Positions 569-62,937 of a stretch of DNA of 64,000 nucleotides are shown piece after piece. Every line of letters starts with the position of its first letter. Within the stretch, counting starts at the first letter, position 1. The position numbers and the translations under genes are program-made. The DNA is taken from positions 1 through 64,000 of IMG/VR virus record IMGVR_UViG_3300028831_000378; one strand, written 5' to 3'. Below the pieces are notes generated by a model. It was given only the letters and a program-made list of their open reading frames with translations. It was not told the origin of the DNA and ran no database searches. This DNA comes from a virus.

Positions 569-608
569 GATCACTCCGTTATCGTCGTGCGTACCCGAGT
601 TGAAGGAG
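569..608 (+). promoter_or_regulatory. early-type promoter/operator plus conserved leader, copy 1
   Basis: Dyad GATCAC-tcc-GTTATC at 569-583. -10-like TATCGT at 580-585, then 6 nt, then TACCCGAGT at 592-600. GAAGGAG at 602-608 and ATG at 615. Confidence 0.55.
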
Positions 609-614
609 CACGAG

Positions 615-992
615 ATGCCCGAAGGACCAATGGAGCGGGAGACGCGCGAGGCGCTGGCGGACTATCACGCGCTCGTCGAGTACGACTTGGCGCGCCTGGT
701 GCGCTACGGCGATATGGCGCGGTCGCGCCGGGCGCGCGAGATCAACCGGCGCGGCGACGAACTGCTGCGCGCAGGGGTGCAGATCGACTCGACGGGGCTG
801 TTCCCGCGGGTCGAGCCGGAGGAGTTGGCGGCGGCGTTTGAGCGTGTGCTGCGGCCGCGTTACCGGCGCTGGCACGCGAGCGTGCAGCCGTTCGAGTTCC
901 ACGGGACGACGTATCGTCGCTTCACGAAGCACGCTCGCGGGACTGCCGCGGCGTGGCGCGCGACGGCCGCGAAGTGCGGGGTCGATCTCTGA
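615..992 (+). CDS. hypothetical protein (first gene of early unit 1)
   Basis: First ATG after the conserved leader/RBS. The 540 start in the ORF track would read through the promoter motif. Stop overlaps the next ATG. Confidence 0.65.
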   Translation: MPEGPMERETREALADYHALVEYDLARLVRYGDMARSRRAREINRRGDELLRAGVQIDSTGLFPRVEPEELAAAFERVLRPRYRRWHASVQPFEFHGTTYRRFTKHARGTAAAWRATAAKCGVDL

Positions 993-1609
993 TGGGCGAG
1001 ATCGAACTGCGTGCGGCGCGCGCGATGCCGTTTCTTGACGACGAAGCGGTGTGCGAGCAGGTCGCCGATCACTGTCTCGAACTCTCGACGTTGCACGGGT
1101 GTCTGCCAACGCCGGAGCAGCGGCTCCCGGACGAAGGCGGGTGGATCGTGTTGCGCGAGCAGCCGTACACGGAGATTCCATCGCCCCCGTTCGCGTCGAT
1201 GTGGCGTGCGCGGCCCGTGTTCGCGGCGCGGACCTTCCGGGGCATCCTTGCCGGCGGGCGCCGGCGAACGCTGAAGTGGCCGGAGGAGCGCGCGCGGATC
1301 GTGACGCCGGCGGGCGAGCTGACGCTGCTGATGACGGAGTACGCGGTCGTGCGTGACCTGCGCCCGTATCTGGACGCGGAGGGCGCCGGCGTGACGTTGC
1401 ACGTGATGGGACCGGGCGCGGTGGAGGACGATCTGCGCGAGCGCGTGTTCTACCTTCAGTGCCGTGGTCTGAAGCGCGCTGACGCGTTGACGCTGCTGCT
1501 ACCGGAAGTGACCGATCAGACGTTCGCGTGGCTGTCGATGGACGGAATCTCGGACGTGGAGACGTACGAGGCGGCGCTCGACGCGCACCGGCCGCGGGCG
1601 GTGGCGTGA
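992..1609 (+). CDS. hypothetical protein with weak SufB/SufD-like C-terminal motif
   Basis: TGATG coupling at 990-994. The C-terminal RVFYLQCRGLKRADALTLLL resembles the SufB/SufD FYL.sRGi...A..Ll motif (weak, by eye). Confidence 0.6.
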   Translation: MGEIELRAARAMPFLDDEAVCEQVADHCLELSTLHGCLPTPEQRLPDEGGWIVLREQPYTEIPSPPFASMWRARPVFAARTFRGILAGGRRRTLKWPEERARIVTPAGELTLLMTEYAVVRDLRPYLDAEGAGVTLHVMGPGAVEDDLRERVFYLQCRGLKRADALTLLLPEVTDQTFAWLSMDGISDVETYEAALDAHRPRAVA

Positions 1610-2178
1610 TGGCAAAGCAACTCACGGAGGAAGAGCGCAAGGTGCGCGAGGAGCTGCTGCTCGCGGCGCTGGAGTCGCTGTCGGGCGGCTCGGAGTGGGT
1701 CGACGCTGATCAGGTCGTTCGGCATCTGAACTTCGGGCAGCCGCCGGAGGCGGGGTGGCTGACGGCGATTGGCGCCGGCCGGATGCTGTCGCGGTTCGCG
1801 CGGGAGGGCCGGATCGACGTGCGCGATGAGGGCTACATGAACTACTACCGGAGCCTGGATGTCCGCAGGCCGATCCCGAGCATCGGCGAGGTGCTGGTGC
1901 CGAAGGACACGCCGGCGGGGCCGCCGCATGCTCGCGTTGCATGGGCGATCGCGGTCGACACGCTGCGGACGGTGCTCGGCGTGGAGCGTGACGGGCTCGA
2001 CGTCGCGTTCGGGCAGCGCGGCGAAGGCGAGCGGGTGCTGTCGATGGAGGAGCTGGCCGTGGAGTACGAGCGGCCGGACGGGAAACCGATAGGAGAGGGG
2101 AGCGACGATGCTGTCGCCGAAGGTGTCGGAGATCGCGCGTCTGAGCGCACATCGAACGAACGAGAGGGGCTGGACTGA
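1609..2178 (+). CDS. hypothetical protein (possible winged-helix N-terminus)
   Basis: ATG 1609 overlaps the upstream TGA. Balanced composition. Confidence 0.6.
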   Translation: MAKQLTEEERKVREELLLAALESLSGGSEWVDADQVVRHLNFGQPPEAGWLTAIGAGRMLSRFAREGRIDVRDEGYMNYYRSLDVRRPIPSIGEVLVPKDTPAGPPHARVAWAIAVDTLRTVLGVERDGLDVAFGQRGEGERVLSMEELAVEYERPDGKPIGEGSDDAVAEGVGDRASERTSNEREGLD

Positions 2179-2711
2179 TGGGAATCGAGATGCGCGCGCC
2201 GGGCAATCCGTACCGGGAGGTGGAGGTGCCGAGCGACGAGGCGTTCGGGTCGATGCTGACGAGCGGCCTGCGCGGGGGGATCGGGTCGGGTCCGGGGCTG
2301 CTCGGAGCTGACATCGACCGGATCGCGCGCCACCATCACGAGATGGGTCGCCGCGAAGCGGAGACGGAGGCTGACGAGCGGGTCGAGCGGATGCGCCAGC
2401 AGCTCGCGGCCGCGTACGACGAGGGGTTCGCTGCGGCCCGGACCGAGGCGGCGCGCGGGCTCGCGCGGCACGCGCGCGGCGCGGTGCTCGCCGCGGTGTG
2501 GTTCCCGCTGCTGTCGCTTCGCGACGGGCCGAAGAGCAAGGCGCACGCCGGCATCGACGGGGTGCTGAACGGGCTGCGCGAGGTCACGGAGTTTCTGGAT
2601 GGCGTCGAGCATGGGGAGCCCGACGCGGACGCGGAGGCGCTGATCGCGGACGGGACGATGATCCGGCGGATGGCGTGCCACAGTCCGGATCGACTCCGGA
2701 GGAGGTCGTGA
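2178..2711 (+). CDS. hypothetical protein
   Basis: ATG overlaps the upstream stop. ORF-track frame has protein-like composition. Confidence 0.6.
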   Translation: MGIEMRAPGNPYREVEVPSDEAFGSMLTSGLRGGIGSGPGLLGADIDRIARHHHEMGRREAETEADERVERMRQQLAAAYDEGFAAARTEAARGLARHARGAVLAAVWFPLLSLRDGPKSKAHAGIDGVLNGLREVTEFLDGVEHGEPDADAEALIADGTMIRRMACHSPDRLRRRS

Positions 2712-3412
2712 TGGGCGTTCCGAACGAGGCGCAGTCGGACACGGTGAAGGCGGTCCGCGCGCTGCTGGACGCCGATCGCGCCGGCACGACGCCGCCACAT
2801 TCGACGAGCGCGGGATGGTCCGTCGCTCGAACGGTGCAGGTGATCGCCGCCGACGACGAGCTGGTGTTCGAGGTCATCCGGACGGAGACGGGCGCTCTGG
2901 AGCAGGTCGTGGACGTGCTCGTGGACGGCGGGCTGCGGATCCGCGAGCGCTGCGGCGAGCAGGCGCCGGGAGGCTTTGAGGGTGCGCCGGAGTGGCTGAA
3001 GTCGGGGATGACGTGCGTGCGGTGGGAACATCACGACGGGCCGCATCGCGTCGGGCGTCGCGCGGATGGCCCGTTCTTCGAGTGGCAGGACTTGCACGCG
3101 GCGTCTGACGACGAGTACACGCGGCAGCTCGACGAGCTGATGAAGGCGTACGCGCCGGTGCGGGATCGGTGGCGCAGCTACGTGGCGGCCGCCGCTGAAC
3201 GGCGGGATGCGGCGCCCGAGCATCCGGCGGTGACGTGGGCGGCGGGCGTGCGCGCGAAGATGGAGCGGCTGTCGCACGAGGACGACGCGATGGCGCAGCA
3301 GCCGCAGCGGCAGGACGCGCTGTCGTCGCAGCTTCGCGACGTCGCGGTCGTGGCGACGCGGATGGGTTGCTATGACGCGGCGGATTTCATCTCGCGGAGG
3401 CTGGTGGGCTGA
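2711..3412 (+). CDS. hypothetical protein
   Basis: Internal ATG 2711 of ORF 2498-3412 forms TGATG with the upstream stop. The sequence before it is Arg/Gly-rich out-of-frame-looking junk. Confidence 0.6.
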   Translation: MGVPNEAQSDTVKAVRALLDADRAGTTPPHSTSAGWSVARTVQVIAADDELVFEVIRTETGALEQVVDVLVDGGLRIRERCGEQAPGGFEGAPEWLKSGMTCVRWEHHDGPHRVGRRADGPFFEWQDLHAASDDEYTRQLDELMKAYAPVRDRWRSYVAAAAERRDAAPEHPAVTWAAGVRAKMERLSHEDDAMAQQPQRQDALSSQLRDVAVVATRMGCYDAADFISRRLVG

Positions 3413-3831
3413 TGGCTGCTCCGGATCTCGTGTCGCGGATGGTCGACGCGCGGGACTGTTTGCGTGACGCGTCGGTCACGCACGAGGGCGGCCAGGGCGG
3501 GATGCGTGCTGTCGCCGGCGCGTTGCGGTGGTTGGAGGAGGGCATCGCGGAGGGCGAGGAGTGGCGGGCTCGGGTCGCGGCTGCGCGTGAGCTGGTGGCC
3601 GGCGAGGCGCACGTGTGCACGTGCGCGCAGCCGCATGTCATCGACGCCGCGGGTGTCCCGTGCCCAACGTGCGGAGCGAAGCGCCACGCGGACTGCATGG
3701 AGGGCGGCCGGCGACTGGACGAGGCGCATCCGGCGCGGGCGATGGTTGCGGTGAGGGAGGCGGAGGGCTGCTCGAACGGCTTTGACGATCGCTGTCGGTT
3801 CGAGGCGGCACTGCGCGAGCTGGTGGCGTGA
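3412..3831 (+). CDS. hypothetical Cys/His-containing protein
   Basis: ATG 3412 overlaps the upstream stop. Contains CTC...CPTC...H..C. Confidence 0.6.
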   Translation: MAAPDLVSRMVDARDCLRDASVTHEGGQGGMRAVAGALRWLEEGIAEGEEWRARVAAARELVAGEAHVCTCAQPHVIDAAGVPCPTCGAKRHADCMEGGRRLDEAHPARAMVAVREAEGCSNGFDDRCRFEAALRELVA

Positions 3832-4106
3832 TGGCGGAGCGCGAGGACGTCGAGCGCGCGCTGATGGTCGCGGCTGACGAGGCGAACGAGCGGATCCGGA
3901 CGTGCCACGAGGTCGTCGCGTGTCCGCGGTGTCATGCGCCGATCGGGTCGCGGTGCGCGGCGTTGCAGGGCGCGGGCGGCGGTGGGTACGCGATGCTGGA
4001 GGTGCGCGCGGGGAAGTGGCCGCCGCGAACGACGTACGTGCAGATGGGCCGCGAGCTGAAGCATCCGCATCGGGAGCGCTGGACACTCGTGCAGGCGCCG
4101 CGCTGA
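3828..4106 (+). CDS. zinc-ribbon protein
   Basis: Start is GTG 3828 or ATG 3831, overlapping the upstream TGA. Contains CPRCHAPIGSRC ... HPHRER. Confidence 0.6.
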   Translation: MMAEREDVERALMVAADEANERIRTCHEVVACPRCHAPIGSRCAALQGAGGGGYAMLEVRAGKWPPRTTYVQMGRELKHPHRERWTLVQAPR

Positions 4107-4333
4107 TGCCCGAGATGCCGCTCGCGGAGTTCGAGGCGATGCTCGCGCGGACGTTCGGCGAGGACTGGCGCTCGAAGGCGATCGTCGGGCCGCTCGGCGT
4201 GTTCCCGTTGCGCGATCTGCCGGGCGAGGCCGGGTACGTGTCTGTGCCGGCGCCGGCGTCGAGCGCGTCCGGGCTGTGGCAGACGATGCCGCCGGCGAGG
4301 TGGAACCAACGTGAAGGGCGGAAGGGTCGATGA
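4106..4333 (+). CDS. hypothetical protein
   Basis: TGATG coupling at 4104-4108. Confidence 0.5.
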   Translation: MPEMPLAEFEAMLARTFGEDWRSKAIVGPLGVFPLRDLPGEAGYVSVPAPASSASGLWQTMPPARWNQREGRKGR

Positions 4334-4354
4334 CGCGATCGGAGGTGCAGGGCG

Positions 4355-4489
4355 ATGGTGGTCGGGAATAGGCAGGTGCAGGCGCAGGTGAAGTCGCTGC
4401 GGGAGGTGCTGGCCGATCCGGGGCTGTGGGCGGGGCTCGCGCCGCTTGGCGTGCTGCTGCTGCTGCTGCTGGTGGCGGTCGTCGCGTAG
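4355..4489 (+). CDS. small membrane protein (44 aa)
   Basis: GGAGG at 4341-4345 and ATG at 4355. The hydrophobic tail LAPLGVLLLLLLVAVVA is partly encoded by (CTG)6. Below the ORF-track length cutoff. Confidence 0.45.
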   Translation: MVVGNRQVQAQVKSLREVLADPGLWAGLAPLGVLLLLLLVAVVA

Positions 4490-4491
4490 CG

Positions 4492-4701
4492 ATGCGCGAG
4501 TGCGATGGGTGCGGTGAGCCCGGCGCGACGGAGACGCTGTGGCTCGCCGCACCACTCGGGCTGTGTGCCGTGCACGTGCATCGCAACCGTGAGTGCGCGA
4601 ACGCGGCGCGCGAGGCGCGCGGCGGCGGCCGGTTCGTGCCGGAGCCGAAGTCCAGGGACGACGAGGTGAAGCGGATAGCGCGCGGTACGATCCGGCGGTG
4701 A
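4492..4701 (+). CDS. hypothetical protein (CxxC)
   Basis: Internal ATG of ORF 4426-4701, 3 nt after the previous stop. Starts MRECDGCGEP. Confidence 0.5.
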   Translation: MRECDGCGEPGATETLWLAAPLGLCAVHVHRNRECANAAREARGGGRFVPEPKSRDDEVKRIARGTIRR

Positions 4702-4717
4702 GCGAGCGAGGAGGCCG

Positions 4718-4897
4718 ATGATGGAGTCGACGGGACCGACAGGATTCGATCCGCATCCGGAGGGCGCGGTGGGCGGCGAGGAGATGGAGCCGCTGGGCGT
4801 GGAGGAGGAAGCCAAGCGCGAGGCCGACGCGCTGCGCGAGGAGGACGTGCGGCTGTCCGATCAGCTCGACGATCGCGAGGAGGGCGGGCTGTCCTGA
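4718..4897 (+). CDS. acidic hypothetical protein (59 aa)
   Basis: GAGGAGG RBS followed by ATG 4718. Stop overlaps the next ATG. Below the ORF-track cutoff. Confidence 0.45.
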   Translation: MMESTGPTGFDPHPEGAVGGEEMEPLGVEEEAKREADALREEDVRLSDQLDDREEGGLS

Positions 4898-5154
4898 TGG
4901 GCCTGCCCGCTGACCTGCGCGGCGTCGTGCGCGAGGGCGAGCTGTCGTCACGGTCGCTGGAGGACGCCGCGCTGGACGAGCGCGCGCGGGGACGCCGGCC
5001 GCGGCTGCTCGCGGTCGGCTCGACGGAGCTGGAGGCGCGGGCGCTCGCGATCCTGCGCGACGAGGGGCCGTTGGCGGACCTGCGCGGCGACGCGCCGGCG
5101 GTCGTCGTGGACTGGAGTCTGTCGGCGGGCGAGTGGGAGTTGCGGGAGACGTAG
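4897..5154 (+). CDS. hypothetical protein
   Basis: TGATG coupling. Last gene before a large inverted repeat. Confidence 0.55.
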   Translation: MGLPADLRGVVREGELSSRSLEDAALDERARGRRPRLLAVGSTELEARALAILRDEGPLADLRGDAPAVVVDWSLSAGEWELRET

Positions 5155-5156
5155 CG

Positions 5157-5220
5157 GCGCCGGCGCCGGCGGAGCTGTCATGGCTGAGCTGGCATCGCTA
5201 CCACTCGCCGGCGCCGGCGC
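5157..5220 (+). terminator. large inverted repeat / possible terminator
   Basis: 15-bp perfect arms GCGCCGGCGCCGGCG (5157-5171) and CGCCGGCGCCGGCGC (5206-5220), directly after stop 5152-5154. No T-tract. Confidence 0.4.
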
Positions 5221-5290: not shown

Positions 5291-6071
5291 GGCGCGCGTG
5301 ACTGTCGTCCGGCTGGGAAACACGGCGCCGATGATGCAGGTGCCCAAGCGCGTCTCCGTGGAGGGCGTGTTGGAGTGGCAGTCGGTCCCGGCGCCGCATC
5401 TGGACGTGTCCGTGACGACGGTCGGGATGCGCGAGGGCTTCGACGACGAAGCGGACGTCGAGCTGGCGCTGTCGACGAACAACGATCGGATGCTCGACAT
5501 GATCGGCCGGCTGCTCGGCGACGAGCATCGCCGCTACGCGATCGGGGTCGCGGAGGTCGAGTCGATCATGGGGACGCACTCGGGCGCCGCGCCGGCGTGG
5601 GTCGCGGTCGACGACGATCCGGAGTTCGAGGCGGCGTTGGCGGAGCACTTCCGTTGCGCTCGTGGCGAGCCGATGGCGCTGCTGACGAACGCGGGCCGCG
5701 ATGCGTTGCACGCGCAGCATCTCTCGACGAGCACGCAGCCGGCGTCGATCAACTACATCGCTCTGTCGGCGAACGCGACGGCTCCGAGCGCGGCGAGCAC
5801 GACGCTGCCGGGCGAGATCACGACGGCTGGCGGCGGGCTGCTGCGCGCGCAGGCGACGTACGCGCACACGGCGGGCACGAACACGAGTACGCTGACGAAG
5901 ACGTTCACGGCGAACGGGTCGGACTCGCTGCCGGTGACGCTCGCGAAGATCGGGGTGCTGAACGCGTCCAGCTCGGGCACGCTCGGCTACGAGACGCTGC
6001 TGAACGCGACGGCGACGCTATCGGCGGTCGGTGACAGCGTGACGATCACGGAAACCGTCACGGCGGGCTAG
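5289..6071 (+). CDS. virion-associated protein with tail-collar-fibre-like C-terminal domain (putative)
   Basis: The C-terminal INYIALSANATAPS...TTLPGE...AKIGVLNASSSGTLGYE pattern resembles tail-collar fibre N-domains (by eye). The true start may be the leaderless GTG at 5298. Confidence 0.55.
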   Translation: MARVTVVRLGNTAPMMQVPKRVSVEGVLEWQSVPAPHLDVSVTTVGMREGFDDEADVELALSTNNDRMLDMIGRLLGDEHRRYAIGVAEVESIMGTHSGAAPAWVAVDDDPEFEAALAEHFRCARGEPMALLTNAGRDALHAQHLSTSTQPASINYIALSANATAPSAASTTLPGEITTAGGGLLRAQATYAHTAGTNTSTLTKTFTANGSDSLPVTLAKIGVLNASSSGTLGYETLLNATATLSAVGDSVTITETVTAG

Positions 6072-6823: not shown

Positions 6824-9121
6824 GTGGCGCTGAGTTTTTCCGCCGGTGGCTCGGGCGATGTCATCGAGGCGGCGTCGGCGCCGGCGATCAGCGGCGCGTT
6901 CACGGTGGCGGCGTGGGCGCGGCCGCTCGCGTCGCTGAATAGCGGGACGATCCTGGGTGTTGGCGCGAACGCGTCGAACAACTACATCGCGCTAGCGATG
7001 CTCGATACGGGCCTGCCGTTCTTCGAGACGTCGCTGCCATCGGTCGATGCGAATGGGCCGGGAACGGCGTCGGCGGGCGTGTGGTGTCACGTCGCTGGGG
7101 TGCAAACGAGCACGACGAACCGTGTGTGCTATCTCGACGCTGTGGCGGGGACGGCGAATACGTCGTCGAGTAACCCGAGCGGGATGGATCGCGTCACGGT
7201 CGGGCAGCTCCGTCTGAATGGGTCGCTGGTGAGCGTCTGGAATGGGGACGCGGCGGAGTGCGCGATCTGGAGCGCGGCGCTTACGGTCGCGGAGTTGGCG
7301 GTGCTCGCGGCGGGGTTCTCGCCGCTGAAGGTGCGGCCGTCCGCGCTGGTGTTCTACGCGCCGCTGCTGGGACGCGCGACGGGGCCGGAGCTGGATCTCG
7401 TCGGCGGCCGGCCGCTGGTGTACGGCTCCGGTTTGGAGCCGTCTGCCTCGGGCACGCACCCACGGGTGCGCGGTCGGGCGCAGGCGGCGGCAGTCGTGCT
7501 CGTGCCGTCGACCACCGTGTCGCTGTCGCGGACGGGCGCGGACACGGTGGCTGTGTCGGATGCCGCGACGCGGGCGCTGGCGGATGCGCGCTCGGGCGCG
7601 GACAGCGTGTCGGCGGTGAGCGATGCGGCGGCTCGTGGGGCGCTCGGGCTCGCGCGCGCCGGCGCGGATTCGCCGGCGCTGTCGGATGCGGCGTTGCGGC
7701 TGTGGACGCCGGCGGGTCGCACGACGGCGGATAGCGCGGCCGCATCGGACGCGGCGACTCGTGCGGTGGCGGCGCCACGTGTGGGCGCGGACGCGGCGAG
7801 CGCGACGGACGCGGCGACGCGTGCGAAGACGGGGCCGCGAGGTGGAGCGGACAGCGCGAGCGTGTCGGACGCTGCGGCCCGTGGAGCGCTCTCTAAGGTC
7901 AGGGATGGCGCAGATGCCGTAGTGGTAGCGGACACGCCGGGGAGGGCTGTGGTGGCTGCGCGCGGCCCGCAGGACACGGTGATTGCGGGGGACGCCGCGG
8001 GCCGGCAGGTGGTGGAGGCGCGCGCGGCCGCGGATTCGGTGTCGTCGTCGGATGCGGCGGTCGGGCTGGTGGGGAAGGTTCGGACGAGCGCGGACAACTC
8101 GGGCGTGTCGGATGCGGCGACACGGGGTGCGGCGGGGCGCGCGCGGTCGAGCGCGGATGCGGTGGTGGTGACGGATGCCGCGGCGCCGCGTGTGACGTTC
8201 GTGCGGCAGGCGCTCGACACGGCGGTCTTCGCGGATGCGGCGACGGGCGCGCTGCTGCTCGCACGATCGGCGGCCGACGCGGCAACGGTCGGCGATGCCG
8301 GCGTGCGTTTGCTCGGCGAGGCGCGGGCGGGCTCGGATAGCGCGGCGGTGACGGATGCGGCGCAGCGCGGGCTGCTTGGGCTCGTGCGGGCGGTGTCGGA
8401 TGCCGCGGGCGTGTCGGACGCCGGCGTGGTGAGCAATCGTGCGCTGGTGCGCGGCGGCGCGGACGCGACGGGGGTGTCGGACGTCGCGCGGCGCACGGCG
8501 GCGATCTCGAAGGCGGCGCAGGACGCGTGGACGCCGGCGGATGCCGCAACGCGGCTGCTGGGCCAGCACGTCGCGGCGGCGGACACGGTGGCCGCGGCGG
8601 ATGCCGCGAACCGGCTGCTCGGCGTCGCGCGAGGTGCGGTTGACGCGAGCGCGTCGACAGACGCGGCGTCGGGCAGCGCCGGCGTGGCGCGCGCGGCCGC
8701 GGACGCGTGGGGCGTGTCGGACTTGCCGGTGGGCGCCGCGGCGTTCGCTCGGATGGCGGCGGACGTCGCGGCGGTCGTCGAGCACGCGAACGTGGGCGTA
8801 GCGCTCGTGCGCAGGGGCAGCGATGCACAGGCCGTCGCCGATGCGGCGTCGCGGGGTGCGATGCCGCGCGCTCGCGCGACGATCGACGTGATCGGGGTGT
8901 CCGACGTCGCGCGCCAGGTCGTGCTGCGGATGCTGTTCGCCGGCGACGTCGTGGTTGTGACGGACTCGGGTGTGGCAGTCGCGTTCGGGGAGGGCGTGCA
9001 GGTCGAGCTGCTGATCGACGTCGAGCGGTCGCTGATCGTGGAGGGGTATGTGGGCGCGTCGATCGGTACTGTCGGCGTGGTTCTACCGTCGACAGACGCC
9101 ACGGGAGAGATCACGGCGTGA
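6824..9121 (+). CDS. LamG/concanavalin-like lectin domain protein with long degenerate tandem repeats
   Basis: N-terminal LamG-like pattern (FTVAAWARP..., VWCHVAGV..., VCYLDAV..., WNGDAAECAIWSAALTVAEL). It is followed by about 25 repeats of about 20 aa. Confidence 0.75.
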   Translation: MALSFSAGGSGDVIEAASAPAISGAFTVAAWARPLASLNSGTILGVGANASNNYIALAMLDTGLPFFETSLPSVDANGPGTASAGVWCHVAGVQTSTTNRVCYLDAVAGTANTSSSNPSGMDRVTVGQLRLNGSLVSVWNGDAAECAIWSAALTVAELAVLAAGFSPLKVRPSALVFYAPLLGRATGPELDLVGGRPLVYGSGLEPSASGTHPRVRGRAQAAAVVLVPSTTVSLSRTGADTVAVSDAATRALADARSGADSVSAVSDAAARGALGLARAGADSPALSDAALRLWTPAGRTTADSAAASDAATRAVAAPRVGADAASATDAATRAKTGPRGGADSASVSDAAARGALSKVRDGADAVVVADTPGRAVVAARGPQDTVIAGDAAGRQVVEARAAADSVSSSDAAVGLVGKVRTSADNSGVSDAATRGAAGRARSSADAVVVTDAAAPRVTFVRQALDTAVFADAATGALLLARSAADAATVGDAGVRLLGEARAGSDSAAVTDAAQRGLLGLVRAVSDAAGVSDAGVVSNRALVRGGADATGVSDVARRTAAISKAAQDAWTPADAATRLLGQHVAAADTVAAADAANRLLGVARGAVDASASTDAASGSAGVARAAADAWGVSDLPVGAAAFARMAADVAAVVEHANVGVALVRRGSDAQAVADAASRGAMPRARATIDVIGVSDVARQVVLRMLFAGDVVVVTDSGVAVAFGEGVQVELLIDVERSLIVEGYVGASIGTVGVVLPSTDATGEITA
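7535..9030 (+). repeat. coding tandem repeats (about 57-66 bp period)
   Basis: Repeated core (G)AD(S/A)xxV(S/T)DAAxRxxxxxR, about 25 times, within CDS 6824-9121. Confidence 0.7.
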
Positions 9122-9426: not shown

Positions 9427-9812
9427 TGCTCGCAACGCTCGATCTTGCGGCGCTGACGACGTTCACGGGTCCGGTTGTGGTGCTGGCCGGCGTCGTGTTT
9501 CTTGCGCTGCGCTACAACCGCGAGGAGACGGGCAAGATCGTTTCGCAGCAGGCAAGCGTGCTCGACGACATGAACTCCGTCTATGAGCGCTTGAAGGACG
9601 CGCTGTCGCGGGCGGAGAAGGAGCGTGATGCGGCGCAGCGGGAACGCGACGAGACGAAGGCGGAGCGCGATGCGTTGCGGAGCGAGGTCGCGGCGTTGCA
9701 TAGCGAAGTGGAAGCTGCGCGGCAGGCAAATGAGCGGCTGGCGGGGCAGGTTGCGCAACTCCGGGTAGAGCTGGCGGAGTACGAGCAGCGACGGCGAGGT
9801 GACAGCGTGTGA
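9426..9812 (+). CDS. membrane-anchored coiled-coil protein
   Basis: TGATG coupling. N-terminal TM segment (LAALTTFTGPVVVLAGVVFLAL), then a charged heptad-like ERDAAQRERDETKAERDALRSEV region. Confidence 0.6.
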   Translation: MLATLDLAALTTFTGPVVVLAGVVFLALRYNREETGKIVSQQASVLDDMNSVYERLKDALSRAEKERDAAQRERDETKAERDALRSEVAALHSEVEAARQANERLAGQVAQLRVELAEYEQRRRGDSV

Positions 9813-10570
9813 GCGAGGAGCAGAATCCGATAGAGGTGGTGGGGAAGACGCTCGACGTCGTGTGTCATCGGCTTGATCGGCAAGCGAGCGTCATTCGCCT
9901 GATTTTGACGCTGGGCGCTGTGACGTTCATGCTCGCGGGCACTTCGATCGTGATCAATGGCTGTCGGGCACAGGATGCGAACTCGACGGCGGAGTCGGCG
10001 GAGAAGCGCAGCTCGTCGAACTCGGTGACGCTGCGGTGTCTCACGGAGTCCAAGACGCGGAGCGCGGCGACGCGATGCCTGAACATTCAGGCGGCGAAGG
10101 AGGGGCGCGCGGGGCGCGCCGGAGCGGCTGGTGCGCAGGGCAAGCGGGGGGTGGCTGGTGTGCAGGGCGCGAAGGGCGACAAGGGCGATCGAGGTGCGAC
10201 GGGTGCGACGGGTGGCCGTGGGCCGCAGGGGTTGCCCGGTGGGCAGGGGCCGAAGGGCGACAAGGGCGACAAGGGCGATCCGGGCGATGACGCGGTGGCG
10301 CAGCAGCGGCCGGTGCGTCCACCTCCGAGTGAGCTACCGCCGCGCCCGGATCGTCCGGACAGGCAGCCGCCGGAGCGCGGGCCGCAGGGCGATCAGGGGC
10401 CGAAGGGCGACAAGGGAGATAAGGGCGACAAGGGAGATAGGGGAGAGCAGGGGCCGGCGGGGGAGGCGCCGATTGACGTCGAGACGGCTTGTCCGAATGG
10501 GCTGCTGGGTGGACTAACGCCGGGCATCGCGACGGACCCGGACGGCGATCGGCACTACACGTGCCCATAG
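9809..10570 (+). CDS. membrane-anchored collagen-like (G-X-Y) repeat protein
   Basis: GTGA overlap at the start. TM segment (LILTLGAVTFMLAGTSIVI). Two G-X-Y blocks (GRAGRAGAAGAQGKRG... and GPQGDQGPKGDKGDKGDKGDRGEQGPAG) flank a Pro-rich linker. Confidence 0.7.
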   Translation: MSEEQNPIEVVGKTLDVVCHRLDRQASVIRLILTLGAVTFMLAGTSIVINGCRAQDANSTAESAEKRSSSNSVTLRCLTESKTRSAATRCLNIQAAKEGRAGRAGAAGAQGKRGVAGVQGAKGDKGDRGATGATGGRGPQGLPGGQGPKGDKGDKGDPGDDAVAQQRPVRPPPSELPPRPDRPDRQPPERGPQGDQGPKGDKGDKGDKGDRGEQGPAGEAPIDVETACPNGLLGGLTPGIATDPDGDRHYTCP

Positions 10571-49871: not shown

Positions 49872-49971
49872 TACGGCCGAGCGATTGCCTCTTCGTGCGA
49901 CTCGGGTAAAGTGGCCGGAGCCACCGCGAAGCCGCACACAAGGGCCGTCCCTCGGGGCGGCCTTTGTTGTT
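49872..49971 (+). ncRNA. candidate ~100-nt small RNA carrying the anti-leader box ACTCGGGTA
   Basis: TATCAT at 49860-49865, then 6 nt, then TAC(GG)CCGAG at 49872-49881. Three stem-loops: TAC..CCGAG/CTCGGGTA (49872-49908), GTGGC-cgga-GCCAC (49911-49924), and the terminator. No RBS or credible ORF. Confidence 0.4.
49941..49971 (+). terminator. intrinsic terminator
   Basis: aGGGCCG-tccctcgggg-CGGCCtt stem followed by TTTGTTGTT. Confidence 0.65.
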
Positions 49972-50027
49972 CCCGGCCGATCAGCGCGTTATCTTCCCGG
50001 GGGTCCGACGTACCCGAGTCGAAGGAG
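49967..50027 (+). promoter_or_regulatory. early-type promoter/operator plus leader, copy 6
   Basis: TTGTTC at 49967-49972 (17-nt spacer). Dyad GATCAG-cgc-GTTATC at 49979-49993. TATCTT at 49990-49995. TACCCGAGT at 50011-50019. GAAGGAG at 50021-50027 and ATG at 50028. Confidence 0.55.
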
Positions 50028-53111: not shown

Positions 53112-53713
53112 AACAGACGGCACTGAAGAGGAGCGCTCCACTGGAGCGCCGGACGGAGTTGCGCGCGGACCCGGAGACGACGCGCGAATGGGTGCAGCGC
53201 GCTCGCGAGGCCGGCCTGTCGACGGATCCGATCAAGCTGGAGGAGTTCATCCGCCGGGGCCGGAAACGGATGGGTAGCCGGGCGAAACGGCGCGTCGCGT
53301 TCGCGACACGAGCGGCGGGCGAAGGTCCGCTATCTCCGGAGGAATGGCGGCGGCAGGTCGCGCTGGCGACGGACCTGCGCTGTATCGTCACGGGAACCCG
53401 AGCCGCTGATGTCTTCGACCCTGCCTTCGACGCGCATCACCCTTTGCCGAAGTCTGAGCTTCGAGCGAGAGGTCTGCACGCGTTCGTCTATGACGCGCGC
53501 AATGGCGTGTTCGTCGCGGAGCAGGTGCACGTTGCGCATGAGTACGGCGCCGGCGACGAGGACAGAATCCCGCGCGATCGGTTGCCGGCGCGGGTGTGGG
53601 AGTTCGCCGCGGAGATGGACGAGCTGGGGCGAGGGAAGTGGGCGACCGCGATGGTCGAACGGAAGCATCCGGCGGCGGGACGCAGCCGCAGCAGTCGAGT
53701 ACGGAGGGTCTGA
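53108..53713 (+). CDS. HNH-like nuclease (putative)
   Basis: ATGA overlap. CIVTG...FDAHHPLPKSELR...NGVFVAEQVHVAHE (H-N-H order). Basic N-terminus MKQTALKRSAPLERR. Confidence 0.5.
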   Translation: MKQTALKRSAPLERRTELRADPETTREWVQRAREAGLSTDPIKLEEFIRRGRKRMGSRAKRRVAFATRAAGEGPLSPEEWRRQVALATDLRCIVTGTRAADVFDPAFDAHHPLPKSELRARGLHAFVYDARNGVFVAEQVHVAHEYGAGDEDRIPRDRLPARVWEFAAEMDELGRGKWATAMVERKHPAAGRSRSSRVRRV

Positions 53714-58354: not shown

Positions 58355-59896
58355 CTACGCGGCGGCCTGCTGCGGCGCCGCGTACTCCTCCGCCAGCGCC
58401 GCGATCTCGTCGTCTGAGACGTACACAGCTCGGACGGCGACGATCCCGCGTTTCTTGTCGTTCCACGCGAACCCGCGGCCCGGCTGATCGCGCAGGATCC
58501 GGTCGCACCGGATGCCGCTCGCCGCGGCGCCCTGCCAGAACATCATGTCCGTGTACTGCGCGGACAGCAGCCGCAGCGCGATCCGGTCCGGGATCTCGTC
58601 GCGCATGTCGACGACTTCCTTCCGCGGATTCTGGAGCGCGCCTAGCAGCGTGATCCCGACAGCGCGGCCCTTGTTCACGAGGAGCGTCGTCGCCATCTTG
58701 CACTCGTCGGCGATGTCCTTCGCGGCCTTCGCCTTCGACTCCGGGACCATGATCGACGCGAACTCGTCGATCATCAGCAGGATCAGCGGCTCGTCGATCG
58801 TGGGGACGTGCTGGCGCGTGGACTCCTTGTACTTCTGAGTGCGCGCGTTCATCTCCGTCACGAGGTCGGCGAGCATGTCGCGCATGTCCTTCGGCGTGCT
58901 GTCGCAGTAGCGCGTGTAGAGCGGGAAGCCGCGATACAGCTCCATCCCGCCCTTCGGGTCGATCGCCCATACCTGCACGAGGCCGTCGCGGATCGCGGGC
59001 GCCAGTCCCTTCAGGACCGACCACAGGATCGAGCCCTTCCCCGATCCGGTGAGGCCGGCGACGAGGATGTGCGAGCCGTGCAGCTTCAGCGTCCAGCGTT
59101 CGCCCTGCTCGGTCCGACCGACCGGGATGGCGCCGAAGTCAACGTCTGCGGTCGACTCCGGTACGGGGATCGCGGGTAGCGACTCGCTGAGGACGTCCTT
59201 TGTCGCGAACTCCATCACGATCTGGCCGGGGATGCGCTGGCCGCCGGCGTGCTTTCCCCACGCGAGCCGGCGCCGGCCCACGCTGTCGAGGATCCACATG
59301 AGCCGCAGCAGGCGGCCGGGGTCGCTGTAGCGCGGGTAGACGCGGCAGGACTGAGCGCCGAAGGCTTCAGCGAACGCGTCGACCCGGCGTTCGTACATCT
59401 CGACGGTGTGCGCCGCGAGCATCTTGACCTGCAACGTGTGACCGAACGGGCCGACGATCACCTTCCGAATCTTCGGCACCTTGTCGCGCCGGTGCTCCAA
59501 GGGAACGGTGAGCATGTTCTCCTGCATCTCTTCGTGCCACTTACGGGCGTAGACGCGCCGGGCGACCCACCACGGCCGTAGCCACGAACCGATCCAGCGT
59601 TCCCACGAGCCCCACCGTGCGATCCATTGCGCCCATCGCCGGCGCGGCCGGCGGAAGAAGCCGGAGCACCACGCGAACGTCCACCACGCGGAGACGAAGA
59701 CCACGACGTCGATCCCGAGCCCGATCGCAGTGCGCGGTCCGAAGAGCACGACGAGCGCGCCGGCGAGCACGATCGCGAGGGCGCGCTGCGGGAACCACCA
59801 CGCGTAGAGCACGACGAGCACGATCGTCTGCACGAGCCAGATGACGGGAACGACGATCCAGTCGCCGATACTCACGAGCGTCCCCTCCGAAGCCAC
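58355..59896 (-). CDS. FtsK/SpoIIIE-family (TraB-like) DNA translocase ATPase with N-terminal TM segments
   Basis: Walker A GLTGSGKGS and Walker B LLMIDEF. Three to four N-terminal TM helices. GTG start. Converges on rusA with only a 2-nt gap. Confidence 0.8.
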   Translation of the reverse strand: MASEGTLVSIGDWIVVPVIWLVQTIVLVVLYAWWFPQRALAIVLAGALVVLFGPRTAIGLGIDVVVFVSAWWTFAWCSGFFRRPRRRWAQWIARWGSWERWIGSWLRPWWVARRVYARKWHEEMQENMLTVPLEHRRDKVPKIRKVIVGPFGHTLQVKMLAAHTVEMYERRVDAFAEAFGAQSCRVYPRYSDPGRLLRLMWILDSVGRRRLAWGKHAGGQRIPGQIVMEFATKDVLSESLPAIPVPESTADVDFGAIPVGRTEQGERWTLKLHGSHILVAGLTGSGKGSILWSVLKGLAPAIRDGLVQVWAIDPKGGMELYRGFPLYTRYCDSTPKDMRDMLADLVTEMNARTQKYKESTRQHVPTIDEPLILLMIDEFASIMVPESKAKAAKDIADECKMATTLLVNKGRAVGITLLGALQNPRKEVVDMRDEIPDRIALRLLSAQYTDMMFWQGAAASGIRCDRILRDQPGRGFAWNDKKRGIVAVRAVYVSDDEIAALAEEYAAPQQAAA

Positions 59897-60306
59897 GCAC
59901 GGTAGGTCGGGCCGATCTTCGCGCCGTAGGACGCGAGTTCGCGCTCAGCGTGGTTAGCGCGGTCGGCGGCCCACTTGGCGCCGTCCGCAGCGATCTTCGC
60001 CGCGTCGGCGGCGTGCTCGGCGGCGTTGGCGTAGCGCTGCGCGTCGCGGGTGGCTTCGCGTCGCTCGTCGGCGTAGGAGTACGGATCGACGACGGCGGCG
60101 CTGTCGCACTTGTGCGCGGCCTGACGCGCGTGAGCCGCCGCCTGATCGGCTTCAGCTACGCATCGTGCGACGTCGCCTTCGAGATCAGCATCGACGGAGA
60201 CGGTGGACGTGATCGAGCGTGCGCGGGCCGCTTCACGGTCGGCGCGTTGCACTGCCGCTCGGGCACGGCGACGCGCTTCGACTCGTTCCTGCGACCCGCG
60301 CGCCAT
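59872..60306 (-). CDS. hypothetical helical Ala-rich protein
   Basis: ORF-track frame. Its 3' end overlaps the FtsK-like start by 25 nt. Confidence 0.55.
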   Translation of the reverse strand: MARGSQERVEARRRARAAVQRADREAARARSITSTVSVDADLEGDVARCVAEADQAAAHARQAAHKCDSAAVVDPYSYADERREATRDAQRYANAAEHAADAAKIAADGAKWAADRANHAERELASYGAKIGPTYRAWLRRGRS

Positions 60307-60309
60307 TCG

Positions 60310-60831
60310 TCAAGGCGCAGCGACGAGCCGGTAGCGCTGGCCGTTGCAGTAGGGGCGGAGCTGTCCGCCCATGCTTGCGCCCTGCGCGCCGTTCGGGCGA
60401 GCGGGGACGTACCGGATGTCCGCCGCGTTGGTCGAGCGGCCCTCCGCGGGCGGGTACTCGTCGCGCGCCTTCCCGGGCCGCGTCTTCGTGACGCCGGCGA
60501 GCCGAAACGCGGCCTGTCGGCGCTGGTCTTCGCCGGTGTCGTTCTTCACGAGCACGACGGGCCAGCGCTTGCCGTCATCGACGATCGTCTTCCCGTCGCT
60601 GAGCGTGTTGCGGCCGTGGCGAGCATCGACGATGTGACGCCAGTTGTCCGGGTACTTCGACACGGACACACGAATCGGTATGACGCGATCGGGTTCGCAT
60701 CGTGAGTAGCCCTCCGCGTGAGCGGCCGCCATCTTCGCACGGGGACTCTCGAACTGCGCCCAATACCACGAGTAGGCGAACGAGCCGGCGAAGAAGAGGA
60801 CGACGAGGCGCGCGCGCAGAGAGAGCCCCAT
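60310..60831 (-). CDS. NucA/NucB-like DNase with N-terminal membrane anchor or signal
   Basis: GGGAGGG RBS then ATG 60831. TM segment LRARLVVLFFAGSFAYSWYW. ARDEYPPAEGRS...IRYVPARPNGAQGASMG matches the DNase_NucA_NucB DEYPfA...N..qG core by eye. Confidence 0.6.
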   Translation of the reverse strand: MGLSLRARLVVLFFAGSFAYSWYWAQFESPRAKMAAAHAEGYSRCEPDRVIPIRVSVSKYPDNWRHIVDARHGRNTLSDGKTIVDDGKRWPVVLVKNDTGEDQRRQAAFRLAGVTKTRPGKARDEYPPAEGRSTNAADIRYVPARPNGAQGASMGGQLRPYCNGQRYRLVAAP

Positions 60832-61241
60832 CAGCGCGACCCTCCCGGCGACGAGCGCTGCGGACGGTCCTGCCGGCCGTCGAGATGCGGACCCACGTTG
60901 AACTCCGAGCCACGCTGCCACGGAGGCGTCGTCTGCGGCGAAGGCGCCCGTCCCGCGAACGCGAGAAACCAGATGGTCACGACGACGGTAGCCGCGATCG
61001 AGATGTAGAACGCGACGAGAGCGGGCCAGCTCCGACGCCGCTCAGCAGGGGGAGCCGAAGGCACCTGCTGCTCGTAGTAGCCCGGAGGCGGCTCGTGACG
61101 AACGACCACCTCGTGAATCACACGCTCAGAGGGCGCCACAGAGCCACTGGAGCGCCTGGGAGCAACCGGGCGGGCCACCACGTCGCCTTCGACGATCTCA
61201 CCGTGGAGAACGGGCCTGCGCTGCGGCAGCCGAGACTTCAC
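60831..61241 (-). CDS. membrane protein (single TM)
   Basis: GTG start. WPALVAFYISIAATVVVTIWFLAF. TGATG coupling to the nuclease gene. Confidence 0.55.
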   Translation of the reverse strand: MKSRLPQRRPVLHGEIVEGDVVARPVAPRRSSGSVAPSERVIHEVVVRHEPPPGYYEQQVPSAPPAERRRSWPALVAFYISIAATVVVTIWFLAFAGRAPSPQTTPPWQRGSEFNVGPHLDGRQDRPQRSSPGGSR

Positions 61242-61350
61242 GATGACCCGCCGATCTGAGAGGTGCTGCGGGGCCAGCGTCCGCCGCGGCGGCTAGGCGG
61301 GCGAAGCCCTGAGCCTAGCCGAGGCCGCCGTTCGGCGTGACGCGTCGGGT

Positions 61351-61471
61351 GGTTTGTGGGGGTTTGGGACTCGGGCATGGTTCCTCCGGTGTTGGTGGTT
61401 TGGAGGTTACGGGGTGGGGACGTCGTGTTGCCGGCGCGTGGGGTCGCGTCGGTCGGTTTGTGCGGGGTTTG
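61351..61471. repeat. GGTTTG iteron-like repeats in a non-coding region
   Basis: GGTTTG at 61351, 61361, 61397, 61455 and 61466. Two pairs are spaced 10-11 bp apart. The region is G/T-rich, unlike the flanking DNA. Confidence 0.5.
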
Positions 61472-61585
61472 TGTGCCCGGGTAGGGTGGGCTGTGGACGG
61501 GGAGCCGCTGTGGCGCTAGCACGCAGAGGGGGCGGCCACGGCGGGACGCGGCGAGCCTGCTAGGGGGCGGCGAACGCGTGTTCGG

Positions 61586-61930
61586 CTAGCGGAGGAGGTG
61601 GGGGAGTTCGGGGACGATGTGGGCGAGGAGGAGGACGGCTGTGATGCCGAGGGTGAGGGCGAGGAGGGGTTCGAGGGTGGCTTGGAGGGGTGTGGCGCGG
61701 CGGTAGCGGCGGCTGAAGGGGTGGCGGCGTTTCGCGGGTCGGCGTTTCGCGGGTGCCTTGGGCTTTGGCTTCGCGGCGGGTTTCGGGGCTGGCCGCGGCG
61801 CCGGCGTCACGACGATGGTTGGCGGCGGGTCGGGTGTGTCGCCGGTGAGGACGAGGATGGTCGTCTCGGGCTCGCCGAAGATGTCGGCGGCGGTGGGGGT
61901 GGCGGGTGGCTGTGGTGGGCGGCGGCGCAT
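61586..61930 (-). CDS. Pro/Lys-rich protein with C-terminal TM anchor
   Basis: TAATG coupling with the upstream gene. C-terminal LLALTLGITAVLLLAHIV. Confidence 0.5.
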   Translation of the reverse strand: MRRRPPQPPATPTAADIFGEPETTILVLTGDTPDPPPTIVVTPAPRPAPKPAAKPKPKAPAKRRPAKRRHPFSRRYRRATPLQATLEPLLALTLGITAVLLLAHIVPELPHLLR

Positions 61931-62196
61931 TAGAGGAGGGTGGGGCGGTTGCAGTGGGTGTGGTTGGCGGCGAACATCGCGGGGATGTCGGCGGCGAAGA
62001 CGGTGGTGTGGCGGCCGCGGCGTTCGGTGGTGCCGCAGCCGTGGCAGGTGAGTTGCCAGCCGTAGCGGTAGCCGTCTGTGCGGGTGATGAGTGCGGCGGT
62101 GACGGTGGGGCTGCCGGGGACGGGGCGGGGGGTGCCGATGGTGTGGCGGCCGAGGAGGGTGTTTTCGATTGCGTGGTCGGGGGTCGGCATGATCAT
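61930..62196 (-). CDS. hypothetical protein (88 aa)
   Basis: Only the C-terminal part of ORF 61930-62805 looks protein-like (MIMPTPDHAIENTLLGRH...CHGCG...). GGAG lies upstream of ATG 62190/62196. Confidence 0.45.
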   Translation of the reverse strand: MIMPTPDHAIENTLLGRHTIGTPRPVPGSPTVTAALITRTDGYRYGWQLTCHGCGTTERRGRHTTVFAADIPAMFAANHTHCNRPTLL

Positions 62197-62483
62197 CGGC
62201 TCCGGAGTGCCCATGCGGTGAGGGCGAGGCCGGTGGGGGTGCGGACGGTGCCGGTCGGCTGATCTTCGATGTCGAGGTAGCCGGGGATGCCTACGGCGGT
62301 GAGGTTGGCGATGATGGTGGGGCGGGTGCGGAGGTCGGGTCGTCCGGGGCGGTAGTCGGCGGCGTGGGCGGCGCGGCGTGCGGCGGCTTGTGCGGTGCGG
62401 TGGGCGTGGCGCCAGTAGCGGCGTTGGCGGCGGAGGGTGTCGCCGGTGGTGGTGGGGCGTGGGGCGAAGAGGTTGCGGAGCAT
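62193..62483 (-). CDS. hypothetical protein (96 aa)
   Basis: ORF-track frame. Stop overlaps the next start. Confidence 0.45.
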   Translation of the reverse strand: MLRNLFAPRPTTTGDTLRRQRRYWRHAHRTAQAAARRAAHAADYRPGRPDLRTRPTIIANLTAVGIPGYLDIEDQPTGTVRTPTGLALTAWALRSR

Positions 62484-62498
62484 GGTCGCGGGGTCCGG

Positions 62499-62912
62499 TT
62501 AGCTGCGCTGGTGGGCGCCGGGGTTTGCCACGGGGTCTTCGTCGTACAGGGCGACGAGGCCGGAGCCGGCGAGGTCGGCGCGCCAGTAGCCGTTTGGCAG
62601 CAGCTCGACGCGGCGTGCGGTGGTGGGGCGGCCGCGGTAGCGGACTGTGCAGTGGGTGTAGGTGGTGGGCGCTGGCGTGTCGTCGAGCTGGAGGCGCATG
62701 TCGAGCTGGTAGAGCTGCTGTGCGAGGAGGTCGCGAAGTTGTGTCTGCGCCTGGGCGAACTGCTCGTCGGTCATGCGGTAGCCGTTGGCGTGCGCGACGC
62801 GGCACAGCAGGGACTCGGCGGCGTCGTCGGCGAGGCTGGCGGAGTTGGCGTCGCGTTGGGCGACGGGAATCGAGAGCGGCATGGTGATCTCCGTGATGGG
62901 TGACTCGGGCAT
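62499..62912 (-). CDS. hypothetical protein, first gene of reverse cassette (leaderless start candidate)
   Basis: ATG 62912 lies 6 nt after a minus-strand TATCAT (62919-62924) and begins ATGCCCGAGT. An alternative is ATG 62882, preceded by GGAG. Confidence 0.55.
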   Translation of the reverse strand: MPESPITEITMPLSIPVAQRDANSASLADDAAESLLCRVAHANGYRMTDEQFAQAQTQLRDLLAQQLYQLDMRLQLDDTPAPTTYTHCTVRYRGRPTTARRVELLPNGYWRADLAGSGLVALYDEDPVANPGAHQRS

Positions 62913-62918
62913 AGCCCT

Positions 62919-62937
62919 ATGATAACGGAGTTATCGC
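62919..62937. promoter_or_regulatory. divergent control region with perfect palindrome GATAAC-gga-GTTATC
   Basis: Palindrome at 62921-62935. Minus-strand -10 TATCAT at 62919-62924 and plus-strand TATCGC at 62932-37. Confidence 0.55.

Follow-up and report, generated by a model that had tools for sequence, protein, structure and literature searches.

The start-associated sequences (SAS) of Cluster K mycobacteriophages and their extended form (ESAS) were described by Pope et al. 2011 (PMC3203893) and taken up again for phage Adephagia in 2024 (PMC11373665). ESASs contain putative promoters; the role of the SAS is not known (PMC11373665). Here, we relate these and other repeated phage elements to a composite module that recurs along a stretch of viral DNA of 64,000 nucleotides (positions 1 to 64,000 of IMG/VR record IMGVR_UViG_3300028831_000378; this whole stretch is called the window). 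The module joins a 15-bp dyad, a -10 hexamer, a short leader sequence (the box), a ribosome binding site (RBS) and a start codon, and one inverted copy of the box (the anti-box) lies in a predicted small RNA. With a probability of roughly 0.55, we read the system as a two-layer cassette, i.e., a -10-dominated promoter with a palindromic operator combined with a leader box that is paired by a phage small RNA. The evidence is computational and comprises motif enrichment, placement, conservation, predicted RNA folds and covariation between loop and box.

Cluster K SAS/ESAS is the closest architectural analogue of this system, while its sequence is unrelated. In both cases, a short asymmetric motif stands in one orientation upstream of many gene starts, often with a promoter-bearing inverted repeat upstream of it, and is conserved across diverged relatives. 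K1 genomes carry one inverted SAS away from gene starts, as the window carries one intergenic inverted box (49900-49908), and we found this inverted SAS to lie in the loop of a conserved intergenic hairpin, as does the anti-box. An earlier annotation made from the letters of the window alone (the sequence-only reading) had already noted a resemblance in concept together with a different sequence. The analogy is apt, and the 13-bp SAS consensus GGGATAGGAGCCC (up to two mismatches) is at chance level, with one match in the window versus 1.13 expected and none at a gene start. With regard to layout, the Cluster K SAS, 3-7 bp away from the start codon, includes the Shine-Dalgarno sequence, whereas the box of the window is separate and located upstream of a distinct GGAGG-type RBS. 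Furthermore, the SAS is confined to the non-structural arm, while modules of the window also head structural operons (copies c1, c4 and c5). Finally, ESAS repeats are 17 bp long with a spacer of 4-14 bp, compared to half-sites of 6 bp with a 3-bp spacer that overlap the -10 in the window.

Cluster A phages carry operators and stoperators for an L5 gp71-type repressor (PMC9283540, PMC6550527), the stoperators being asymmetric monomer sites that act on elongation (PMC9283540). They share with the window that one regulator site is repeated genome-wide in early and late intergenic gaps, which permits genome-wide silencing. However, stoperators are 13 bp long, asymmetric, orientation-dependent and mostly not promoters, while the site of the window is palindromic and located within the -10 at operon starts. 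The stoperator consensus GGTGGMTGTCAAG occurs at chance level (2 matches in the window versus 2.2 expected), and no gp71-like repressor was found in the repressor hunt described below. In the Streptomyces phage phiC31, the repressor is known, and 17-bp conserved inverted repeats occupy intergenic sites of the early region. That is, one palindromic operator is repeated intergenically beside similar promoters; we treat this likeness as a lead. Antisense RNAs are also known from phages, the P1 c4 RNA being an example. In the summary given by PMC4825925, the P4 CI RNA with seqA/seqC is antisense and acts within one operon by premature termination. It resembles the RNA of the window in being a small phage RNA complementary to repeated targets in phage transcripts. 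The CI RNA is processed from the transcript it controls and has two flanking targets in one operon, whereas the proposed targets in the window are at least 6-9 operon leaders and the RNA has its own predicted -10 and terminator, without sequence or Rfam relationship to CI. Since the defining features differ from each named system, we file the system outside any named family, i.e., it is a variant on known kinds and not a member of one of them.

All dyad copies share the form GATnAn-N3-GnTATC, i.e., an inverted repeat with a constant 3-bp spacer. The pattern GATMRNNNNGYTATC (GATMAN-N3-GYTATC) matches exactly the seven sites that had been claimed (c1 to c7 in Table 1) versus 0.06 matches expected from dinucleotide shuffles, and all seven lie in short intergenic gaps. 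The half-site GTTATC alone occurs six times on the plus strand, every time within a module, and three times on the minus strand, two of them in palindromic copies. Six copies show the order dyad, TATCNT, box (T/G)ACCCGAG(T/A), GGAGG-type RBS (Shine-Dalgarno) and start codon, such that the proposed composite promoter-type module is borne out. The right half of the dyad supplies the -10 TATCNT. That is, the dyad overlaps a TANNNT hexamer at a suitable distance from the RBS or from a leaderless ATG, in the geometry of a repressor-type operator over a predicted promoter. The box, ahead of the RBS, coincides with the predicted start of the transcript or follows it immediately. Of the six plus-strand copies, four have a weak -35-like TTGNNN at a distance of 17-18 nt upstream; c7, read on the minus strand, has TTGCTA. 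The spacing between -10 and box is less constant than the 6-8 nt given before for five copies: it is 7-10 nt in the window with 16 nt in c6, and 6-10 nt in relatives. The box lies 1-14 nt upstream of the Shine-Dalgarno sequence; for the six aligned copies of the window, the gap to the RBS is 2-11 nt. A phage RNA-polymerase promoter was rejected, given that no RNA polymerase gene was found and that a palindrome is not expected for such a promoter.

On the plus strand, the box TACCCGAGT is found exactly in c1, c3, c4 and c6 and with one mismatch in c2 and c5, as reported before. Taken by itself, the box shows no more than a modest excess (15 sites with one mismatch or none versus 6.6 expected). 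The strong signal is its association with the dyad: the core ACCCGAG occurs nine times on the plus strand, and 6/9 occurrences are located 7-16 nt after a module -10, which has a chance probability of about 2e-17 by a rough estimate. Two further exact boxes, which the sequence-only reading did not discuss, are on the minus strand, at 10631 and 49900 (the anti-box). The former was rejected as a functional site: it encodes a conserved Ala-Thr-Arg of the TerL N-terminus, where a relative has the sense form. We also discarded a universal hairpin between an upstream CGGGT and the box, as this pairing is found in some copies only.

A terminator-type hairpin directly precedes two modules, c4 and c6, instead of the three suggested by the sequence-only reading, and for c6 the start of RecT is more likely ATG 50037 than the formerly assigned ATG 50028. 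For c7, the perfect palindrome and the minus-strand promoter stand; the minus strand reads TTGCTA-17-TATCAT-AGGGCT-ATGCCCGAGT, and its part TTGCTA-17-TATCAT was found independently by a generic promoter consensus scan. The box-like ATGCCCGAGT, in contrast, contains the start codon of gene 62499-62912. With only 7 nt from the -10 to the ATG, this gene is probably leaderless, and the start codon would take the position of the box. This copy heads a divergent region adjoining a plasmid-like leftward cluster, two genes of which (starts 62912 and 61378) begin with ATGCCCGAGT, such that the box core overlaps their start codons. Beside the seven copies, there is a possible degenerate eighth module (53371-53411), in which the dyad is poor and a clear RBS is lacking; the close relative L206 carries this module as well, there within a called gene. 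The N-terminal part of the ORF (open reading frame) called from 53409 resembles low-complexity mistranslation, and its true start is uncertain.

With regard to the operons, c1 heads one that contains the terminase, c4 one that extends to the portal and head genes, c5 that of the tail genes and c6 that of RecT and replication. Given that terminase, portal/head and tail operons are all headed by modules, the module is pan-genomic and not class-specific, and the former label "early/middle" has to be dropped. Relatives were gathered by pattern scans and RecT-guided retrieval. The set comprises REL (IMGVR_UViG_3300044899_000017, circular, ~77.65 kb, of which 51 kb were analysed), L145 (IMGVR_UViG_3300015089_000001), nine Logan/JGI contigs (L206-L214) and two contigs added by a metagenome scan (L217, L220), most of them examined as ~20-kb pieces. 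A loose pattern scan of viral contigs gave matches that are mostly due to chance. The module is present in at least 13 uncultured relatives; we counted 33 modules in 11 phages, and the 51 kb of REL hold nine copies, all intergenic. Copies in relatives are mostly the perfect palindrome GATAACTCTGTTATC (GATAAC-N3-GTTATC). For c2, c3, c4 and c7, modules are found at orthologous positions in REL, where the flanking proteins are 36-65% identical; thus, the DNA motif is more constrained than its neighbours. Judged from these comparisons, the best explanation would be that the module serves as the universal operon start cassette of this phage family, for transcription as well as translation.

If transcription starts, as we infer, about 7 nt after TATCNT, the palindrome spans positions ~-23 to -9. 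Since the left half-site plays no part in promoter function, the mirror symmetry implies that the binder is a dimer. Centred near -16 and covering the -10 hexamer, the site is in the classical position for occlusion, not for activation. The best reading of the dyad would therefore be a dimeric repressor-type operator. Operator quality is graded: the dyad of the RecT operon is the most degenerate one in almost every phage (8-11/12 matches) and is absent in L214, while the dyads following RusA mostly show 11-12/12 matches. This suggests that the operons may differ in their sensitivity to the dyad binder.

The dyad could instead be the site of an activator, of a sigma-appropriating factor of phage or host, or of an exploited host global regulator. 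We regard this as unlikely. No repressor or integrase was found in the search described below, such that the phage may be lytic and a genome-wide repressor would be less expected. As the -35 is not conserved, the promoter could be factor-dependent, and the RecT operon with its weakest dyad could be a factor-independent early operon that encodes the factor; a zinc-finger gene lies within this operon in three relatives. However, the location near -16 over the -10 is the one expected for occlusion. A host regulator is further disfavoured by a scan of 185,579 species-representative genomes, restricted to the composite pattern, which gave 11 matches, all at chance level; the composite module is thus not a recognisable host regulon motif.

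To find a binder for the proposed operator, we searched about 150 proteins of the window and REL against Pfam and PHROGs. The candidate regulators named by the sequence-only reading (products of 62499-62912, 63039-63386, 1609-2178 and 15419-15979) were not borne out, as they show no blastp match in REL at E<1e-5 and no DNA-binding domain. The leaderless 137-aa product of 62499-62912, encoded beside the perfect palindrome, also lacks a homologue in REL or viral contigs as well as a Pfam domain. Among the proteins searched, just one DNA-binding signature recurs, that of the PF24623 protein encoded at 3828-4106, which we consider a candidate dyad binder on the basis of its sequence. Its counterparts in REL, L207 and L210 are 54-60% identical with an invariant Cys/His pattern, and their genes follow the exonuclease in the RecT operon. 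In the window, PF24623 genes are paired as adjacent paralogues (3412-3831 and 3828-4106, plus strand), and a spurious antisense ORF of 481 aa (3370-4815) masks both in a gene call based on G+C content at third codon positions (GC3).

The second layer concerns the box. In L145, it also follows dyad-less promoters (TTAGGAG/TTAGGAT, then ACCCGAG and an RBS; reverse strand ~5120-5200 and ~5500-5570). Together with its variable spacing, this marks the box as an element of the leader that can be separated from the operator and does not belong to the core promoter. While leader boxes are all on the sense strand, the anti-box is the only intergenic inverted box and is located between the last late gene (stop 49839) and c6, within a predicted small RNA unit. 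Both the inverted box at 49900 and this unit were overlooked by the earlier annotation. There is no terminator between the late gene and the unit, such that the RNA is possibly also the 3' untranslated region (UTR) of the late transcript. The whole window at gathering threshold and region 49800-50040 at E<=1 gave no Rfam match, and a tRNA or known RNA at 49.9 kb was ruled out by empty Rfam and tRNA searches.

The predicted unit of promoter, hairpin and terminator is present in 11/11 phages whose sequence covers the region. In L208, it is located two genes further upstream and was recovered by a covariance model. In all 11, a conserved GG(G)TAnnnT hexamer precedes the anti-box by 23-36 nt, and a terminator hairpin with T-run follows it. 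The arms of the 5' hairpin diverge strongly between lineages, and each individual fold keeps CGGG(U/A)A in its apical loop. Z-scores of this hairpin are between -2.1 and -4.3 for 7/9 sequences and -1.4 for L209. The terminator stem shows compensatory changes in 7/12 pairs; it is the only structure recovered by MAFFT and RNAalifold from ten RNAs.

Loop and boxes vary together among the phages. In the window and L206, the loop ACUCGGGUA (ACUC) faces boxes UACCCGAGU (GAGU), while most other phages combine the loop GCUCGGGUA (GCUC) with boxes that mostly end in GAGC. L208 alone shows the loop CUCGGGAUA and the box UAUCCCGAG, with UAUCCCGA(G/A) in two of its four boxes, and L214 alone has the loop CUCGGGGU and one box ACCCCGAG. 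For nearly all boxes, the complementarity to the loop extends over 7-10 contiguous Watson-Crick pairs (6-7 in L209). The assignment of each loop to its own phage yields the maximum score of 20,000 permutations, attained by 0.045% of them, a statistic that ignores phylogeny. Taking together the conserved unit, the placement in the loop and the covariation of loop and box, the most likely role of the box would be that of a target for a phage-encoded antisense RNA.

Putting both layers together, the cassette would work as follows. A promoter of housekeeping-sigma type would provide TATCNT, sometimes with TG one base upstream and with a -35 that is weak or absent as in Actinomycetota, and would be embedded in a 15-bp palindrome of consensus GATAAC-N3-GTTATC. 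A dimeric DNA-binding protein on this palindrome would occlude the -10 and repress all operons at once, with a strength that would be graded because the operator of the RecT operon is the most degenerate. Transcripts would begin at or just before the box (U/G)ACCCGAG(U/C). A small RNA of ~100 nt would be encoded between the lysis genes and the RecT operon and have a promoter without operator, or it would be part of the late transcript as its 3' UTR. The apical loop of this RNA would present CUCGGGUA for pairing with the box of every phage mRNA. Such pairing would most probably block ribosome loading or trigger decay; that is, we infer a negative effect on translation or stability from the analogy with antisense RNAs that pair close to an RBS.

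Several observations weigh against this two-layer cassette. Concerning the operator, neither a helix-turn-helix (HTH) protein of CI/Cro/XRE type nor an S24 peptidase or integrase was found in the window or in the complete non-structural region of REL. Without integrase and CI/Cro-type HTH, a lysogeny-type repressor is not evident. The zinc-finger candidate was detected in four phages only, from partial DNA, its AlphaFold2 (AF2) model is mediocre (predicted local distance difference test, pLDDT, 70.6; predicted template modelling score, pTM, 0.37), and it has no Foldseek match in the PDB at E<1. Concerning the RNA, the 5' hairpin of the window itself folds no better than shuffles (z = +0.4), and a covariance model from a three-sequence seed was too narrow, with one further significant member only (L208). 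The covariation is carried by about three independent lineage events and has a partial exception in L209, where the loop ACUCGGGAAAG meets boxes ending in C, C and T. Energies of the loop-box duplexes are partly circular, because the leaders were chosen for having a box. Finally, the same covariation would be expected if one DNA-binding protein read the box in either orientation.

The last point leads to another explanation, i.e., that a second sequence-specific protein binds the box and its inverted copy as DNA, instead of an RNA pairing between the two, and acts as roadblock or activator just downstream of the start, while the hairpin is incidental or part of the terminator region of the late operon. 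A protein recognizing TACCCGAG in both orientations could produce the lineage-wide covariation, and the box adjoins the start site, where roadblock repressors act. Nevertheless, we hold this to be quite improbable. Without exception, the inverted copy occupies the transcribed strand, ~23-36 nt past a conserved -10 and ahead of a terminator, and is found at the tip of a long hairpin, the arms of which have different sequences in different lineages and pair nonetheless. Furthermore, L208 and L214 have box variants with a one-base insertion beside standard boxes in the same genome, which is easy to accommodate by a bulged RNA pairing but awkward for a single protein site. The distance between -10 and box, varying from 6 to 16 nt, does not speak for a protein site either. 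Very unlikely is that the box acts alone as a leader element (5'-end stability, translational enhancer or promoter escape) and that the inverted copy is an unrelated conserved 3' feature of the late operon: the 5'-end position near the RBS fits such an intrinsic role, and G-rich runs just upstream are able to pair with the box in several leaders, but one intergenic inverted copy in 11/11 phages, its loop position and its tracking of lineage-specific boxes are left unexplained.

The antisense reading of the box also bears on Cluster K. The single inverted SAS of phage Anaya (JF704106; record 59,870-59,882) is located in a gene-free gap of 385 nt (L238 48683-49067; record ~59,680-60,066), downstream of an invariant TAGACT hexamer and within an apical loop of 10 nt (CCUCCUAUCC) that closes a strong hairpin. 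The gap region is conserved in 178 Mycobacterium phage records, mostly unannotated. Six diverged members share a structure of 49 pairs, 10 of them compensatory, with a C/U-rich loop. The hairpin region has no Rfam match, and the publications consulted do not mention an RNA at this gap. The Anaya hairpin may thus be an undescribed anti-SAS small RNA, which suggests, from sequence and predicted fold, that the same control logic could operate in Cluster K as in the phage of the window. The full generalization, i.e., a trans-acting small RNA regulon over all operons plus one operator at each promoter, with the same loop logic in Cluster K, is put forward tentatively, and we would give it somewhat less than even odds.

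If correct, one operator and one antisense RNA would control all operons, i.e., recombination/replication, head and tail. Such a compact two-layer design is not known to have been described for tailed phages; P4 CI and P1 c4 act on a single operon. If the Cluster K parallel is true, it would also explain how the SAS works, a question that has been open since 2011 (15 years), and it can be tested directly in Mycobacterium smegmatis with Anaya or Adephagia. Cluster K phages serve in therapy and as genetic tools. For the engineering of actinobacterial phages, a leader box that is short and portable, combined with its matching RNA, would be a useful part, and the scheme makes concrete testable predictions for an entirely uncultured phage family.

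Table 1. Modules, small RNA unit and genes of the window; elements within c7 are given in reading direction.
Feature	Coordinates	Strand	Details
Module c1	557-617	+	-35-like TTGCGC 557-562; dyad 569-583; -10 TATCGT 580-585; box TACCCGAGT 592-600; RBS 602-608; ATG 615; heads operon running through large terminase
Module c2	14754-14805	+	dyad 14754-14768; -10 TATCCT 14765-14770; box GACCCGAGT 14779-14787; RBS 14791-14797; ATG 14803 (small membrane-type ORF); orthologous to REL 44616
Module c3	18136-18204	+	-35-like TTGCAG; dyad 18149-18163 (GATAACtgcGCTATC); -10 TATCGT 18160-18165; box 18174-18182; RBS 18193-18197; ATG 18202; orthologous to REL 47192
Module c4	22096-22144	+	dyad 22096-22110; -10 TATCAT 22107-22112; box 22119-22127; RBS 22129-22135; ATG 22142; terminator-type hairpin upstream ~22059-22080; heads operon leading to portal/head genes
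Module c5	32541-32596	+	dyad 32541-32555; -10 TATCGT 32552-32557; box TACCCGAGA 32566-32574; RBS 32579-32585; GTG 32594; heads operon of YdjM-like hydrolase, sheath, tape-measure and baseplate
Module c6	49979-50039	+	weaker dyad GATCAGcgcGTTATC 49979-49993; -10 TATCTT 49990-49995; box 50011-50019; RBS 50021-50027; ATG 50037; heads operon of RecT, exonuclease, DnaC-like and RusA
Module c7	62903-62947	-	-35 TTGCTA 62947-62942; perfect palindrome GATAACtccGTTATC 62935-62921; -10 TATCAT 62924-62919; 6 nt, then ATG 62912; box-like CCCGAGT 62909-62903 right after ATG
Leftward ORF start	61369-61387	-	GGAGGAAccATGCCCGAGT; ATG 61378; box core overlaps start codon
Possible degenerate eighth module	53371-53411	+	GACCTGCGCTGTATCGT-cacggga-ACCCGAGC-cgctg-ATG 53409
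Anti-box RNA unit (predicted)	49860-49971	+	-10-like TATCAT 49860-49865, no dyad; 5' imperfect long hairpin with anti-box ACTCGGGTA 49900-49908 at apex; terminator hairpin and T-run 49940-49971
Candidate dyad binder	3828-4106	+	PF24623 'putative DNA-binding phage zinc finger', 92 aa
Large terminase (TerL)	10625-12532		lambda-gpA type; family search
H2TH domain protein	21258-21590	+	S13-like, PF22525 (H2TH_5), 110 aa
Portal	26799-28814		family search
Lysin-like protein	31005-32531		peptidoglycan-binding; family search
YdjM-like hydrolase	32594-33280	+	membrane, PF04307; first gene of tail operon; family search
Tail sheath	34091-35569		family search
Tape-measure protein	37421-41704		family search
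Baseplate J	44842-46368		family search
RecT, PD-(D/E)XK nuclease, DnaC/IstB-like loader, PAPS-reductase-like protein, RusA	50.0-58.4 kb		family search
FtsK/SpoIIIE-like gene (TraB-type)	58355-59896	-	part of leftward cluster

The window has a G+C content of 70% and a strongly positive GC skew, with genes almost all on the plus strand. Since sheath, tape-measure and baseplate genes are present, it belongs to a contractile-tailed phage. Two segments of the window found no match by megablast against 50,697 phage records; among these records, the best protein identity of TerL is 23.5%, and the tail sheath has no match in the phage records searched. The phage is thus without cultured relative, such that there is no annotation to borrow. 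Its host is probably an actinobacterium, judging from the affinity of the FtsK-like gene, the H2TH gene, the -10-only promoters and one leaderless gene. As for the FtsK-like gene, the nearest ones are TraB-type genes of Nonomuraea, Micromonospora, Mycobacterium, Streptosporangium, Gordonia and Nocardia. The H2TH protein, which we take to resemble actinobacterial IHF-type nucleoid proteins by fold, is encoded just 5' of c4 and is 64% identical in a relative (L174:274-600).

The leftward cluster (58355-62912, minus strand) consists of the TraB-type FtsK/SpoIIIE gene, nearest to actinomycete plasmid genes, and small ORFs. The cluster is missing from the best relative, in which a module directly follows RusA, and looks like an acquired block of plasmid type or of the type of an actinomycete integrative and conjugative element (AICE). 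The YdjM family is LexA-regulated in E. coli, which makes the operator-bearing promoter directly in front of 32594-33280 curious. Two plus-strand genes 5' of the terminase and distant from the tail genes encode a Laminin_G_3 (concanavalin-like lectin) protein of 765 aa (6824-9121) and a protein with collagen triple-helix repeats (9809-10570). Ku, a HerA-like ATPase, SSB, Dam and Cpn10 are encoded by relatives (REL, L207, L208, L214).

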